Below, piece by piece: positions 26,662-31,941 of a stretch of 64,000 nucleotides of DNA; position 1 is the first letter of the stretch; each line of letters starts with the position of its first letter. The translations under genes were made by a program, and so were the position numbers. The DNA is from Promethearchaeota archaeon (GTDB lineage Archaea; Asgardarchaeota; Lokiarchaeia; Sigyniarchaeales; SOKP01): the NCBI GenBank assembly GCA_030603385.1, contig JAUVXW010000008.1:73248-137247 (forward strand). The letters run 5' to 3'. The notes under the pieces are model-generated. The model saw only the letters and a list, made by a program, of their open reading frames with translations. It was not told the DNA's origin and did not search any database.

Positions 26662-28686
26662 ATGCCTGAAAAAGAAAATAACTCTTATGATGCTGATGAT
26701 ATCACCGTTTTGAAAGGCTTGGACGGAGTAAGACGTCGTCCAGCAATGTACATCGGCGATCAAGGGAAGAAGGGACTTCACCACCTTATTTTTGAAGTAC
26801 TTGATAACTCTGTCGATGAAGCGATTGGGGGATATGCTGATGAGATAAAGGTAACGCTTTACAAAGATAATTCAGTTCAAATATCTGATAATGGTCGGGG
26901 GATTCCTATTGATGAACACCCCGAATATAAGAGACCTGCACTTGAAGTAATCATGGAACATTTACATGCTGGTGGTAAGTTTGATAATAAAAGTTATAAA
27001 ATTTCAGGTGGCTTACATGGCATTGGGCTTTCAGTTGTGAATGCTTTAACTGAATGGATGGATGTTGAGGTCTGTCGTGATGGACTCCTCTATAAACAGA
27101 AATTCTCAAAAGGAAAAAAAGCGACAGAAGCCGAAATAACAGAAGTAAAACCCACGAAATCTTACACAAAGATCAAATTTTATCCAGATAATTCTATTTT
27201 TGAATTTGATCCAAATGATCCAATATTCAGTGCACATACTATTACTACAAGGATACGAGAGCTTGCATTCCTTAATCCACACACGCGATTTGAACTTCAT
27301 GATAAATTTAAAGACGAAACAGAAGAATTTCATTATGAAGGAGGATTAAAAGAATTTGTAACGTATTTAAATAAAGATAGACAGCCTTTACATAATGATA
27401 TTATTTATATAAGCGATTCTTTTGATGATAAAGATGGTTCTACGGTAATGTGTGAAATTGCAGCGCAATACAACCAAGGATATCAGACAAATATTCTATC
27501 TTATGCAAATACAATAAACACAATTGAGGGAGGAACCCATTTGACCGGATTTAAATCAGCCTTGACAAGGGGTTTTAATTCTTATATCGAAAATTATATG
27601 GAAAAGAAGTATAAAGACCATGTATTAAGTGGGACTGACACAAGAGAAGGATTATCCGCAGTAATTTCAGTTAAACTTCCTGAACCTCAATTTGAAAGTC
27701 AAACAAAAATTAAGTTAGGAAATCCAGAAATTCGTCAGATTGTAAGCCAGATGGTTACTGATAGATTAACTCAATATTTAGAGGAACATCCACAAACAGC
27801 TAAGAGAATTATTTTAAAAACTATTAATGCTAAAATAGCTCGTGAAGCAGCTCAAAAAGCTAGATTGCTAATCCGTAGAAAATCTGCATTAGATAGTGCA
27901 AGGATGCCTGGCAAACTTGCTGATTGTTCTTCTAATAATCCCGAAGAATCTGAACTTTTTATCGTTGAGGGAAATTCAGCTGGAGGTTCTGCTAAGCAAG
28001 GAAGAGATAGAAATTACCAAGCCATTCTTCCTCTTAGAGGTAAGATATTAAATGTAGAAAAAGCACGTATAGATAAGGTACTTCAAAACAATGAGATTCA
28101 ATCTATTATCAAGGTCTTGGGAGTAGGATTTCAAGAAGATAATGAACAAAATGGGACAAATGGGACAAATGCTGGAACTGAAGAAGCTGAAGAAACTGAA
28201 AAAAACTTAGATTTAAGTAAGTTGCGATATCACAAAGTAGTAATAATGTGTGACGCAGATATCGATGGTTTCCATATTGAAACCTTATTACTTACTTTCT
28301 TTTTTAGATATATGCGTCCTTTAATAGATGAAGGACATCTCTATATTGCATGTCCGCCGTTATATAAAGTCAGTTATAAGAAAAATAAAGAATATGTTTA
28401 CACAGATAAAGAAAAAGATGATTTTATCCAAGAACTAAAAACAAAATATGAACTAAAAGATACATCCTCAGTTAAGATCTCTCGATATAAAGGGCTTGGT
28501 GAAATGAATGCAGAGGAGCTCTATATGACAACAATGAATAGAGACACTAGGAAACTAAAGAAAGTTACTTATGAAGATTATTTAGAAAACGATTTAATGT
28601 TTACTAAACTCATGGGTAAAGAAGTAAAACCCCGGAAAAAGTTTATAATCAGCCATTTTGATGAAGTAAATGTGTTAGATATCTAA
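26662..28686 (+). CDS. gyrB: DNA gyrase subunit B
   Basis: VRRRPAMYIG, SGGLHGIG, EGNSAGG, PLRGKILNV, DADIDG, RYKGLGEM. Confidence 0.95.
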   Translation: MPEKENNSYDADDITVLKGLDGVRRRPAMYIGDQGKKGLHHLIFEVLDNSVDEAIGGYADEIKVTLYKDNSVQISDNGRGIPIDEHPEYKRPALEVIMEHLHAGGKFDNKSYKISGGLHGIGLSVVNALTEWMDVEVCRDGLLYKQKFSKGKKATEAEITEVKPTKSYTKIKFYPDNSIFEFDPNDPIFSAHTITTRIRELAFLNPHTRFELHDKFKDETEEFHYEGGLKEFVTYLNKDRQPLHNDIIYISDSFDDKDGSTVMCEIAAQYNQGYQTNILSYANTINTIEGGTHLTGFKSALTRGFNSYIENYMEKKYKDHVLSGTDTREGLSAVISVKLPEPQFESQTKIKLGNPEIRQIVSQMVTDRLTQYLEEHPQTAKRIILKTINAKIAREAAQKARLLIRRKSALDSARMPGKLADCSSNNPEESELFIVEGNSAGGSAKQGRDRNYQAILPLRGKILNVEKARIDKVLQNNEIQSIIKVLGVGFQEDNEQNGTNGTNAGTEEAEETEKNLDLSKLRYHKVVIMCDADIDGFHIETLLLTFFFRYMRPLIDEGHLYIACPPLYKVSYKKNKEYVYTDKEKDDFIQELKTKYELKDTSSVKISRYKGLGEMNAEELYMTTMNRDTRKLKKVTYEDYLENDLMFTKLMGKEVKPRKKFIISHFDEVNVLDI

Positions 28687-28701
28687 TCTATATAATTTTA
28701 T
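28667..28701. repeat. Left 35-bp direct repeat (gyrB 3' end to cassette ATG)
   Basis: TAAATGTGTTAGATATCTAATCTATATAATTTTAT; 33/35 identical to 29427-29461. Confidence 0.9.
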
Positions 28702-29425
28702 GCAAATATTCAAAATAAATATGCAAATATTCAAAATAAATAGTTATATAACATTAAAGTTGGAAAATAGTAAGACTAATATTTACATCAATGAAATTTT
28801 ATTTAGACAATGTAAATACTTATTATTAAAAAGACTAAAAATTAATGACTTAGGAACTTATTTAAACGAATTCAAATCTATTGATGAAGAATCTGAGAAT
28901 TTAGATCATTCATTAGAGCATGAGCCTTCTGAAATACCGCCTAAGACCGAGTTTTGGGCACATTGTTCCAATCTACAAGTCTGGGCAGAACATAACTACG
29001 ATACCAATATGCTACATTATTCGCTTTCGTTTGATCTTTTGAAGAAATTAGCAGAGGTCGGTGATATACAAGCAAAAAGAGGATTTAAAGATGAATTAGT
29101 TAGAAGGCTTCTAAGTGGTTATATCCCCGTGTTTTGTTACTTATTCTTTGAAGGGTTCTTGAAAATTTTTTCTAAGGATGAAATAAAAGATATATTGAAG
29201 GAAGTTAAAAGAAAAAATTACTTAGTTTACCTCGTCTATTCGACAATCTTAATTGGAGAAGATGAAAACTTTCTACAGTATAACAAAAAGAAATTGATAA
29301 AATTTACATTTATGATAGAGAATTTTCTAGAATCTGACTGCTTCGAAAATCTCCATCTAAAAGATCCAGAAATTGATGATTTCGTAAATGCATTAAGAAA
29401 ATTAAAACAAAAAATAAAAAATTAG
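28700..29425 (+). CDS. Lokiarchaeal 'EFWxHCSNLQxW' family protein inserted between gyrB and gyrA
   Basis: FKINSYITLKLE...FRQCKYLLL...EFWAHCSNLQVWAEHNYDT...LLKKLAEVGD; first 21 nt tandemly duplicated. Confidence 0.8.
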   Translation: MQIFKINMQIFKINSYITLKLENSKTNIYINEILFRQCKYLLLKRLKINDLGTYLNEFKSIDEESENLDHSLEHEPSEIPPKTEFWAHCSNLQVWAEHNYDTNMLHYSLSFDLLKKLAEVGDIQAKRGFKDELVRRLLSGYIPVFCYLFFEGFLKIFSKDEIKDILKEVKRKNYLVYLVYSTILIGEDENFLQYNKKKLIKFTFMIENFLESDCFENLHLKDPEIDDFVNALRKLKQKIKN

Positions 29426-29426
29426 T

Positions 29427-29461
29427 TAAATGTGTTGGATATCTAATTTATATAATTTTAT
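29427..29461. repeat. Right 35-bp direct repeat
   Basis: TAAATGTGTTGGATATCTAATTTATATAATTTTAT, starting 1 nt after the cassette stop codon. Confidence 0.9.
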
Positions 29462-29493: not shown

Positions 29494-31941
29494 TTGACTT
29501 CAGAACAAATTGAAGAGATATTGTTAAAAGAAGAGATGGTAAGTAGCTATATAGATTATAGCATGAGCGTAATCATCGGAAGGGCCATTCCTGATGTAAG
29601 AGATGGACTTAAACCTGTTCAGAAAAGAATTATCTATGCGATGTCTGAAGGTGGATGGGATTCGCGTTCTTCTCTTGTTAAATGTGCTAAAATAGTAGGA
29701 CAAGTTTTAGGGAATTATCATCCTCATGGGGATTCAGCTATATATGGTGCGCTTGTAAGAATGGGGCAGGATTTTTCTCTAAGATATCCATTAATAGATC
29801 CACAAGGTAATTTTGGTTCAGTTGATGGAGATCCTCCCGCAGCTTATAGATATACAGAAGCAAGACTTTCTCGTATTTCTGATGAATTAATTGAGGATAT
29901 AAATAAAGAGACTGTCGAATTTATACCAAACTTTGATGATAGTAAGGTTGAACCTGTTTATTTACCTGCAAAATTGCCAAATATTCTAATAAATGGGACA
30001 AAGGGTATTGCTGTAGGTATGGCTACTTCAATGCCTCCTCATAATTTAAATGAAATTTGTCAAGGTATAATTGCCACTATTGACGATCCTGAAATATCAA
30101 TTCAAGAACTTATGGAAATTATTAAAGGTCCTGATTTTCCTACAGGAGGGTTTATTTCAGATATAAATGGTATTTATAATGCATACACTACTGGAATTGG
30201 TAATGTAAATATTAGAGGGAATGTTGAAACTGAGGTTAAAGGTGAAAAAACTAGCTTAATTATTACAGAAATTCCTTATTTAGTAAACAAATCTTTATTG
30301 ATAGAATCAATTGCTAAATTAATAAGGGATGGTGTTCTTAAAGATATAAGAGATTTAAGAGACGAATCTGATAGACACGGGATGCGTATAGTTATAGATT
30401 TAACTAAAAATGCTCAACCCGTTATCATTAAAAACATCTTATTTAAAAGAACTAGACTGTTTAACAGTTTTAATATTATTAACTTAGTTTTAATTAACAA
30501 TGGAAAGCAACCAAAAATTTTAACTTTAAAAGAAATAATTCAAGAATATATAAATCATCGTCTCCTCATCATTAAAAGGAGAATAGAATTTGATCTAAGA
30601 AAAGCTGAGGATCGTCTTCATAAAGTAGAAGGTCTACTCATTGCTTTGAATGATATTGATAACGTTGTAAATATAATTAAAAAAGCGAAGGATACAAAAG
30701 AAGCAAAGATAAAATTAATAGAAGCCTACAGCTTAAGTGAAATTCAGGTTCAAGCGATACTGAGCATGCAATTATCCCGTTTGACTAATTTAGAAAATCA
30801 AAAATTAGTAGATGAGGAGAAATCACTTAATGAGAGCATTAAAAAATACAAAGAAATTATAGCGAGCGAGCAAATACAGTTAGATATAATAAAGGGTGAA
30901 CTAACTGATCTAAGTGAAAAATATGGAGATCCAAGGAAATCTAAAATAGAATTAAGTGGAGATGAATCGCTTAATGAAATTGAAAAAAAAGACCTTATTA
31001 AAAATGAGCCAACGATAGTTATTTTTACAAAGAATCAATATATAAAAAGGATTTCAGTTGAAGAATATCGTACTCAAGGAAGAGGGGGGCGTGGTAAAAA
31101 AGGAATGACCATACGTGAAGAAGATTTCATTATAGATTTATTTGTATGTTCTACACACGATACAATTCTGGTGTTTACCTCAAAAGGAAGAGTTTATTCA
31201 ATAAAAAGTTATAATATTTCCCTTCAAAAACGCACAGCGCGTGGAAAACCAATTATTAATTTAATACCCCTACAACCTGGTGAAAAGATATCTTCAATGA
31301 TACCCATTAATAACTTTAATACCAATGAAATGCTCATAATGACAACGAAAAATGGGATAATAAAGAAATCCCCGCTAAAACTGTTTTCAAAATTTAGAAG
31401 TACAGGTGTTAGAGCTCAACGAATAAGACCAGATGATGAATTAGTAAGTGTAAAAAGGCTTTCAAACGAGCTAGAAGATATTTTTATAGCAACGAAACTT
31501 GGATACGCTATTAGATTTGACGAATCTGAATTGCGAGAGTTAGGAAGAACCTCTATGGGTGTAAAAGGCGCGGATTTAAGAGAAGGAGATGAAGTCATTG
31601 ACTCACTTTTAGTCTCAAATGATGAAATCATCTTAACTTTAACTAAAAACGGATATGGTCAAAGAACCTTCGTAAAGGAATATAGAAAAACAGGTAGAAG
31701 CGCCAAAGGAGTCATAAACATAACACTAAATAAAATAAAAAATGATAAAGTAATCGCGATTAAAATTGCTAAACATATGGATCTATTAATTGGAACAGAA
31801 CAAGGGCAAATGATAAGAGTACCTGTAGATTCAATAAGAATTACTCATAGAAAGGCAAAGGGTGTTAGGGTCATTAAGTTGTATGAAAATGATTCGGTAA
31901 TTGGAATCGGAAAGTGTGAAAAAGAAGATCAAATATCTTAA
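29494..31941 (+). CDS. gyrA: DNA gyrase subunit A
   Basis: [23 protein letters not shown], GyrA-box QGRGGRG, beta-pinwheel repeats. Confidence 0.95.

Follow-up and report, generated by a model that had tools for sequence, protein, structure and literature searches.

The stretch of DNA studied here, referred to throughout as the window, covers 64,000 nt of a Promethearchaeota archaeon (GenBank assembly GCA_030603385.1, contig JAUVXW010000008.1, positions 73,248–137,247), and coordinates given without a contig label are those of the window. The genome, labelled G000, is a metagenome-type assembly of 58 contigs, 94% complete and with 7% contamination. Within the window, the gyrase genes gyrB and gyrA are separated by a 725-nt segment with one gene (the cargo gene), enclosed between two copies of a 35-nt direct repeat that begins inside the end of gyrB. 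This segment is a real lineage-specific single-gene insertion at the gyrB end. The features of the junction are the following (aa, amino acids; ORF, open reading frame):

26662–28686, + strand: gyrB, 674 aa, intact, with its final 20 nt inside the left repeat (ORF and Pfam matches DNA_gyraseB, Toprim, HATPase_c and gyraseB_C).
28667–28701, + strand: left copy of the 35-nt target duplication, formed by the last 20 nt of gyrB, stop codon included, and 15 nt of spacer.
28675–28686, no strand: perfect 12-nt palindrome TTAGATATCTAA, equivalent to the gyrB codons Leu-Asp-Ile-stop.
28687–28694, + strand: TATA-like octamer TCTATATA of the left copy, 34 nt 5' of ATG 28721, a putative cargo promoter.
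28699–28740, + strand: perfect 21-nt tandem duplication at the left junction, two times TATGCAAATATTCAAAATAAA, by which MQIFKIN is repeated.
28702–29426, + strand: inserted segment of 725 nt, missing from all relatives, with a GC content of 27.4% against 30.1% for the window.
28721–29425, + strand: cargo gene, 234 aa from the native start (241 aa from ATG 28700), with an N-terminal TEFWAHCSNLQVW domain and a helical C-terminus.
29427–29461, + strand: right copy of the 35-nt target duplication, a non-coding pseudo-end of gyrB plus the start of the spacer.
29447–29454, + strand: TATA-like octamer TTTATATA, 47 nt 5' of the gyrA TTG, a putative gyrA promoter element.
29494–31941, + strand: gyrA, 815 aa, with a TTG start conserved in relatives (ORF and Pfam).

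A preliminary description of this locus, made from the letters alone, had proposed a promoterless single-gene cassette between att-like repeats, and most of what it said about the layout stands. The two repeat copies are identical at 33 of 35 positions with a spacing of 760 nt, and reach a repeat score of 27, against a maximum of 16 across 30 simulated 64-kb sequences of the same composition. Their longest exact match is only 13 nt, and the perfect palindrome of the left copy has TTGGATATCTAA as its counterpart in the right one. The ORF of the unit (28700–29425, 241 aa) begins within the final bases of the left repeat, and a single nucleotide separates its TAG from the right repeat, while removal of one unit leaves a compact gene pair with a 47-nt spacer ahead of the gyrA TTG at 29494. 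Just past the repeats, the start of the ORF and the spacer are similar at 12 of 16 positions, which we have taken as a chance effect of AT-rich sequence, the ORF start being conserved in homologues. As the preliminary description also had it, the unit lacks a transposase, an integrase, and terminal inverted repeats: a repeat search of the window gave no inverted repeat at its ends, and neither Pfam searches of the cargo and its neighbours nor fold searches revealed an integrase, a transposase, or another gene for mobility within or next to the insert. Nor is a second copy of the insert present elsewhere in the genome. Around it lie housekeeping genes (an F420 ligase, a pterin-binding enzyme, gyrB, gyrA, a cupin, and others).

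The nature of the repeat becomes evident from the relatives of this archaeon, in which the end of gyrB and the start of gyrA were located by DNA search and 17 junctions were read base by base. In these genomes the two gene ends abut, to the point that the two hits overlap by about 46 nt in the closest ones. The empty-site comparison suggested in the preliminary description gave a uniform result, with insert-free adjacency of gyrB and gyrA on one contig in all 40 species of the genus having both flanks assembled. Likewise, each of the 17 junctions consists of the gyrB stop, a spacer of 42–52 nt, the conserved gyrA TTG, and a single copy of the site, with no insert. The closest relative (G002) has a spacer of 47 nt, the same that remains in the window after taking out one unit. 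Each repeat copy carries one change with respect to the relatives, a C at 28688 in the left copy and a G at 29437 in the right one, a pattern that fits a duplicated target sequence that has drifted since. Neither 153 other genomes of the order nor 400 phylum genomes yielded an orthologue of the cargo (E ≤ 1e-52). Inside the genome itself, the 21-nt core of the repeat occurs without mismatches only in the two copies, the nearest other 21-mers being three mismatches away. Single copy in the relatives and uniqueness in the genome together indicate that the repeat is a duplicated target and not an att site. Furthermore, the relatives keep TTAGATAT(T/C)TAA at the coding position of the palindrome, so that coding constraint on gyrB explains it.

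The start of the cargo gene has to be placed further downstream than previously thought. The ATG that overlaps the left repeat (28700) does exist and is the first one of the ORF, but it is created by the 21-nt tandem duplication (28699–28719 equals 28720–28740). All homologues begin at the position of the second ATG, 28721 (M8 of the 241-aa ORF), which is therefore the native start, 28700 being secondary. The TATA-like octamers, for their part, point to a putative promoter of the cargo. Throughout the genome such octamers peak between –35 and –26 from the ATG and are depleted at –15, and the octamer of the left copy lies at –34 from ATG 28721 and at –13 from ATG 28700. The spacers of the relatives also have an AT-rich, TATA-like element at the same place as TTTATATA. 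Since each repeat copy contains an octamer at a genome-typical distance, the term promoterless is doubtful for this unit; judging from these sequence elements, the cargo is probably not promoterless, and the 21-nt duplication probably restored the spacing between promoter and start. A scan for sigma-70 promoters and intrinsic terminators gave nothing above shuffled sequences, these models being not applicable to archaea.

The gyrB site is not the only one of its kind in this genome. A scan for isolated direct repeats allowed us to tabulate about 20 repeat-flanked units, with repeats of 29–385 nt, and three of them (C51, C34, and C12) were compared with sister species. Empty sites were verified for repeats of 35 nt (gyrB site), 66 nt (C34), 114 nt (C12), and 137 nt (C51). 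The cargoes of the units are unrelated (a hydrolase, membrane proteins, a protease) and the repeats share no sequence. In five of the units (gyrB site, C12, C33, C34, and C20) the repeat contains the 3' end of the co-oriented upstream gene. Units other than the one at gyrB carry 110–240 nt of upstream sequence. The first of the three (C51:16047–17919, L002) contains a member of the same protein family as the gyrB-site cargo between 137-nt repeats (135/137 identical), and its insert of 1599 nt starts with 110 nt that precede the ORF and finishes 1 nt past the TAG. The site is empty and in single copy in G019 and in G002; the flanks of the former are 96–98% identical, which makes this a very young event.

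The second unit (C34:131905–132710, L163) is a small membrane-protein gene behind an RNase Z-like gene, the end of which forms the 66-nt repeats, and its site is empty in G002 and G024. At this same site, genome G004 has a different filler of 1150 nt. The C34 repeat also extends for a further 26 nt at about 70% identity with mismatches mostly at every third base, and this extension looks like a homeologous gene end or the result of partial gene conversion. In the third (C12:38166–39401, L189) an alpha/beta-hydrolase unit sits between 114-nt repeats that correspond to the last 96 nt, the stop, and 15 nt beyond it of the upstream Fer4/flavodoxin gene, with the insert ending on a second in-frame TAG. 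This site is empty in G002, and the 1008-nt unit is found at another locus in G002 and G004. The genes that flank the hydrolase locus of G002 are adjacent in G000, where that locus is empty (C48:23341–23365), from which it follows that the unit has changed place. G019 has both the C34 and the C12 inserts minus some 95–100 nt that include most of the redundant copy (C130 and C175; L168, L173, and L195). Redundant repeat copies therefore decay, and they seem to be deleted quickly. Two of the events, at gyrB and at C12, landed exactly 15 nt past the upstream stop. This coincidence, together with the insert ends at TAG, may be fortuitous, given the small number of events, or may point to a process of greater specificity.

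More units of one or a few genes, with repeats of 39–148 nt, are present in the genome (C20:18286–22164, C33:21240–21958, C15:62638–64198, C38:68743–70273, and others), several of them with the 3' end of the upstream gene inside the repeat. Of a different kind is an interspersed repeat of about 46–50 nt (GAAAGGTAAATTCAGAGTCTGATTTCAATGAAAATTCCTTTGAAAA) that recurs at spacings of 500–4000 nt (C19:35916–41008, C13:34296–35420, and C42:22596–26401) and is not a CRISPR array.

The explanation that we favour, and that we regard as probable, is an insertion with long target duplication, independent of any recombinase and of the target sequence, by which an outside gene was captured between gyrB and gyrA with the cargo as a mere passenger. 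A complete, promoterless-looking copy of the gene would have entered from outside the genome. Most likely, a linear fragment would have been joined to staggered breaks, or replication would have switched template and resumed 35 nt further upstream; filling-in by host repair enzymes would then have left 35 nt of target on both sides. As the duplicated stretch spans the gyrB stop and the TATA-like box, gyrB would stay whole, gyrA would keep its promoter, and the cargo would gain a promoter copy; the event would have survived precisely because the duplication spans both elements. In a compact genome, selection would retain only those events whose duplication covers a gene end and leaves both neighbours intact. 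Slippage, either later or simultaneous, would have produced the 21-nt duplication and brought the native start to the usual distance from the TATA-like box, from where a leaderless mRNA may begin at ATG 28721. The C51, C34, and C12 units support this explanation by repeating the same architecture with other repeats, each with empty sites in sister species. Against it, the two family members of this genome that carry such repeats (gyrB site and C51) have inserts that both end 1 nt past the TAG, which would not be expected if the capture were entirely random.

Insertion with long target duplication is known from bacterial restriction-modification (RM) genes (Nobusato et al. 2000, Gene 259:99; Furuta, Abe and Kobayashi 2010, NAR, PMC2853133). 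The repeats described by Furuta et al. (2010, PMC2853133) are longer than 30 bp, unique in the genome, align with the empty site, and often span a start or stop codon. The gyrB-site repeats resemble them in all these aspects, being of 35 nt (33/35), unique in the genome, and represented by a single copy at the empty site of the relative, and the likeness extends to the variable length among events, the lack of a mobility gene, and the neighbour's stop or start codon often being spanned. The differences lie in the host and in the cargo, here an Asgard archaeon and a non-RM gene instead of bacterial RM genes; no archaeal case passed the screen of Furuta et al. (2010, PMC2853133). These authors also proposed that double-strand breaks made by the RM enzymes drive the insertion (PMC2853133), an idea that cannot apply here.

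Homologous recombination of the Campbell type offers another, unlikely, way of reaching the same arrangement. In this case a small circle with the gene and a gyrB end and spacer of its own would have recombined with the chromosome over about 35 nt, so that both repeats would be chimeras of host and element and the gene would spread from strain to strain at this one site. The distribution of the two differences is what a crossover between them would give, with the ancestral letter at position 11 and the derived one at position 22 in the left copy, and the opposite in the right one; but this arrangement is expected by chance in about one case in four, and the same ancestral-state test was uninformative or contrary when applied to C51 and C34. 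The third-base-divergent extension of the C34 repeat also resembles a homeologous gene end. On the other hand, such a circle would have to come from a donor already carrying the gene next to gyrB, an arrangement that is seen in none of the 40 species of the genus. A search for GyrA fragments among contigs with the sizes of those of the close homologues (1338, 1992, or 8406 nt) gave nothing, an outcome that speaks neither for nor against.

It is about equally improbable, in our opinion, that a dedicated machinery of Loki-type archaea moves units of promoter plus ORF cut exactly at the stop codon, which would amount to a new class of recombinase-free cassette mobility and to a main route by which Asgard archaea gain accessory genes. 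The basis for such a reading is in the coincidences already described: three inserts ending on TAG or 1 nt past it, the landing 15 nt past the stop in two events, and the promoter copy provided by the duplication.

The preliminary description had favoured an integron-like or site-specific cassette. In such a scheme, a host tyrosine recombinase (integron- or Xer-like) would use the palindromic repeat as att or attC to insert or excise the 760-nt unit. This we consider very improbable, and the evidence largely refutes it. It is true that both copies contain heptamers of the GTTRRRY type (GTTAGAT and GTTGGAT) along with the palindrome, that the genome has five tyrosine recombinase genes, and that integrons and attC clusters have been reported in Asgard archaea (Ghaly et al. 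2022, PMC9668308). However, the five genes are all on other contigs, the palindrome is conserved gyrB coding sequence, and single-strand folds of both ends on both strands were no better than shuffled sequences (z –0.9 to +0.3), leaving as sole structure a loopless 12-nt palindrome. Moreover, the repeat is host sequence whose 21-mer has no other near match in the genome, and the repeats of the other units are unrelated and of many lengths. Integron cassettes and the integrase-less attC clusters of Archaea (Ghaly et al. 2022, PMC9668308) share with our unit the compact single ORF and its apparent lack of promoter, but differ in that they have an attC hairpin (an imperfect inverted repeat of about 57–141 nt, folded with bulges at the 3' end of the cassette), absent here as are IntI, attI, and Pc from the neighbourhood, and in a 7-nt core where we have a 35-nt target copy and no shared recombination site.

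Other known systems fit no better. In contrast to a site-specific integrative element, there is no att core shared with other sites of the genome. Transposons, insertion sequences, and miniature inverted-repeat transposable elements make short duplications of fixed length and occur in multiple copies, whereas this unit is in single copy and lacks terminal inverted repeats. Casposons have terminal inverted repeats, a casposase, and a fixed duplication of 13–15 bp (PMC8464041). Casposon or Cas1 integration is similar in that it occurs in archaea, inserts at a conserved gene's 3' end, and duplicates the target, but here the ends are not inverted and the duplication is of 35 nt, ranging from 29 to 385 nt across the units of the genome, and no Cas1 match was found in the 94%-complete genome. 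Islands that target tRNA genes or gene ends also copy the end of the neighbouring gene on the far side of the insert and leave the gene intact; unlike the present case, with one gene, one duplication, and no integrase, they do carry an integrase.

The cargo itself deserves attention, because the preliminary description had suggested that it might catalyse its own movement. As stated there, it belongs to a protein family expanded in Loki-type Asgard archaea and often fused to LRRs, to which we can add fusions to TPR and Ras-like modules. It has the conserved TEFWAHCSNLQVW N-terminal domain of about 165 aa with all the invariant C, D, F, HCSN, and W residues kept (C38, D62, F85, H88, C89, S90, N91, and W95 in the cargo). 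The protein matches 17 places in its own genome, this locus included, and all 24 genomes of the genus that were sampled. The homologues are mostly longer, with LRR, TPR, or Ras-like C-termini, and, where named, carry the label Promethearchaeota or Loki-type. Relatives over the full length are metagenome proteins only, at 84%, 85%, and 59% identity; close homologues were not found in the 400 phylum genomes or in JGI metagenome contigs, and viral contigs gave a single distant member. This last one is encoded on IMGVR_UViG_3300005253_000015 (L188), a contig of 111 kb filed as viral, and is 40% identical over 114 residues.

The structure prediction proposed in the preliminary description as a check for a nuclease or recombinase fold revealed no such fold. 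The AlphaFold model of the cargo (pLDDT 83) consists of a small beta sheet followed by a helical array. Foldseek gave no match in the PDB at E ≤ 0.001, the VIA wide search with the whole model reached a best Z of 6.3 with helical hairpins only, and the N-terminal domain alone (model pLDDT 81.5) gave a best Z of 3.8. The scores of two proteins that turned up, PI-PfuI (Z 3.6) and lambda integrase (Z 2.6), do not rise above noise. Pfam, PADLOC, Rfam, and a tRNA scan did not recognize anything in the cargo or the unit. The predicted structure thus lends no support to a nuclease or recombinase. The invariant Cys, Asp, His-Cys-Ser-Asn, and Trp could form a metal site or the catalytic centre of an undescribed Asgard domain.

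That the EFWAHCSNLQ-domain protein mobilizes its own gene as a one-gene selfish element is accordingly one of the readings to which we give hardly any credit. In its favour, target duplications flank two of the 17 matches to the N-terminal domain in the genome (gyrB site and C51), with the common end 1 nt past the TAG mentioned above, C35 and three metagenomic members (L103, L148, and L098) have weaker or longer-range repeats further out, and the domain does have invariant Cys, Asp, and His-Cys residues. Against it, flanks were available for about 100 other family members, and C51 alone has a repeat immediately behind its stop; some 95 of them lack such repeats. With about 5 of about 100, the suggestion that this mechanism explains how the family spreads is also weakened. 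Besides the negative results of the Pfam, PADLOC, and fold searches, the fusions to LRR, TPR, or GTPase modules are more typical of signalling proteins, and units with unrelated cargo show the same architecture. The share of repeat-flanked family matches in the genome (2 or 3 of 17) exceeds the roughly 1% of genes found in such units, in a comparison with a small count and rough denominators. In our reading, this is an accessory family with fast turnover whose members often take a generic insertion route, and not a self-mobile gene.

Just as hard to believe is that there was no insertion, and that the arrangement either arose as an assembly error or represents an ancestral gene that recombination between the repeats removed from all relatives. 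The metagenome-type assembly and its contamination could be invoked for the first, and the capacity of repeats to promote deletion for the second. Yet a k-mer assembler would not be misled by exact matches of 13 nt at most, both copies are anchored in flanks of their own, and loss would have been required in all 40 species, with no orthologue remaining in the 400 phylum genomes. Least credible of all is a retro-copy, made by reverse transcription of a leaderless mRNA and then inserted at staggered nicks: the insert does span from the start codon to 1 nt past the stop, and variable long target duplications are typical of target-primed insertion, but no RVT_1 reverse transcriptase was found in the 94%-complete genome, the 110–240 nt of upstream sequence in the other units speak against it, and there is no A-tail beyond coding Lys and Asn codons that are common to the homologues.

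The gyrB–gyrA insert, which we attribute to insertion with long target duplication, provides a clean example, in an archaeon, of a known and mechanistically unsolved form of integrase-free gene gain, rather than a new integron-like system or a new kind of mobility. Little is understood of how compact prokaryotic genomes acquire genes when neither integrases nor transposases take part, and this type of insertion, first recorded in 2000, has been described for bacterial RM genes only, with no mechanism assigned. In the present genome there are several young events whose exact empty sites are preserved in sister species, one of the events lying between two essential genes. Altogether, these events show that the process works in Asgard archaea and that it carries ordinary cargo, and they suggest that it may supply the newcomer with a copy of its neighbour's promoter.

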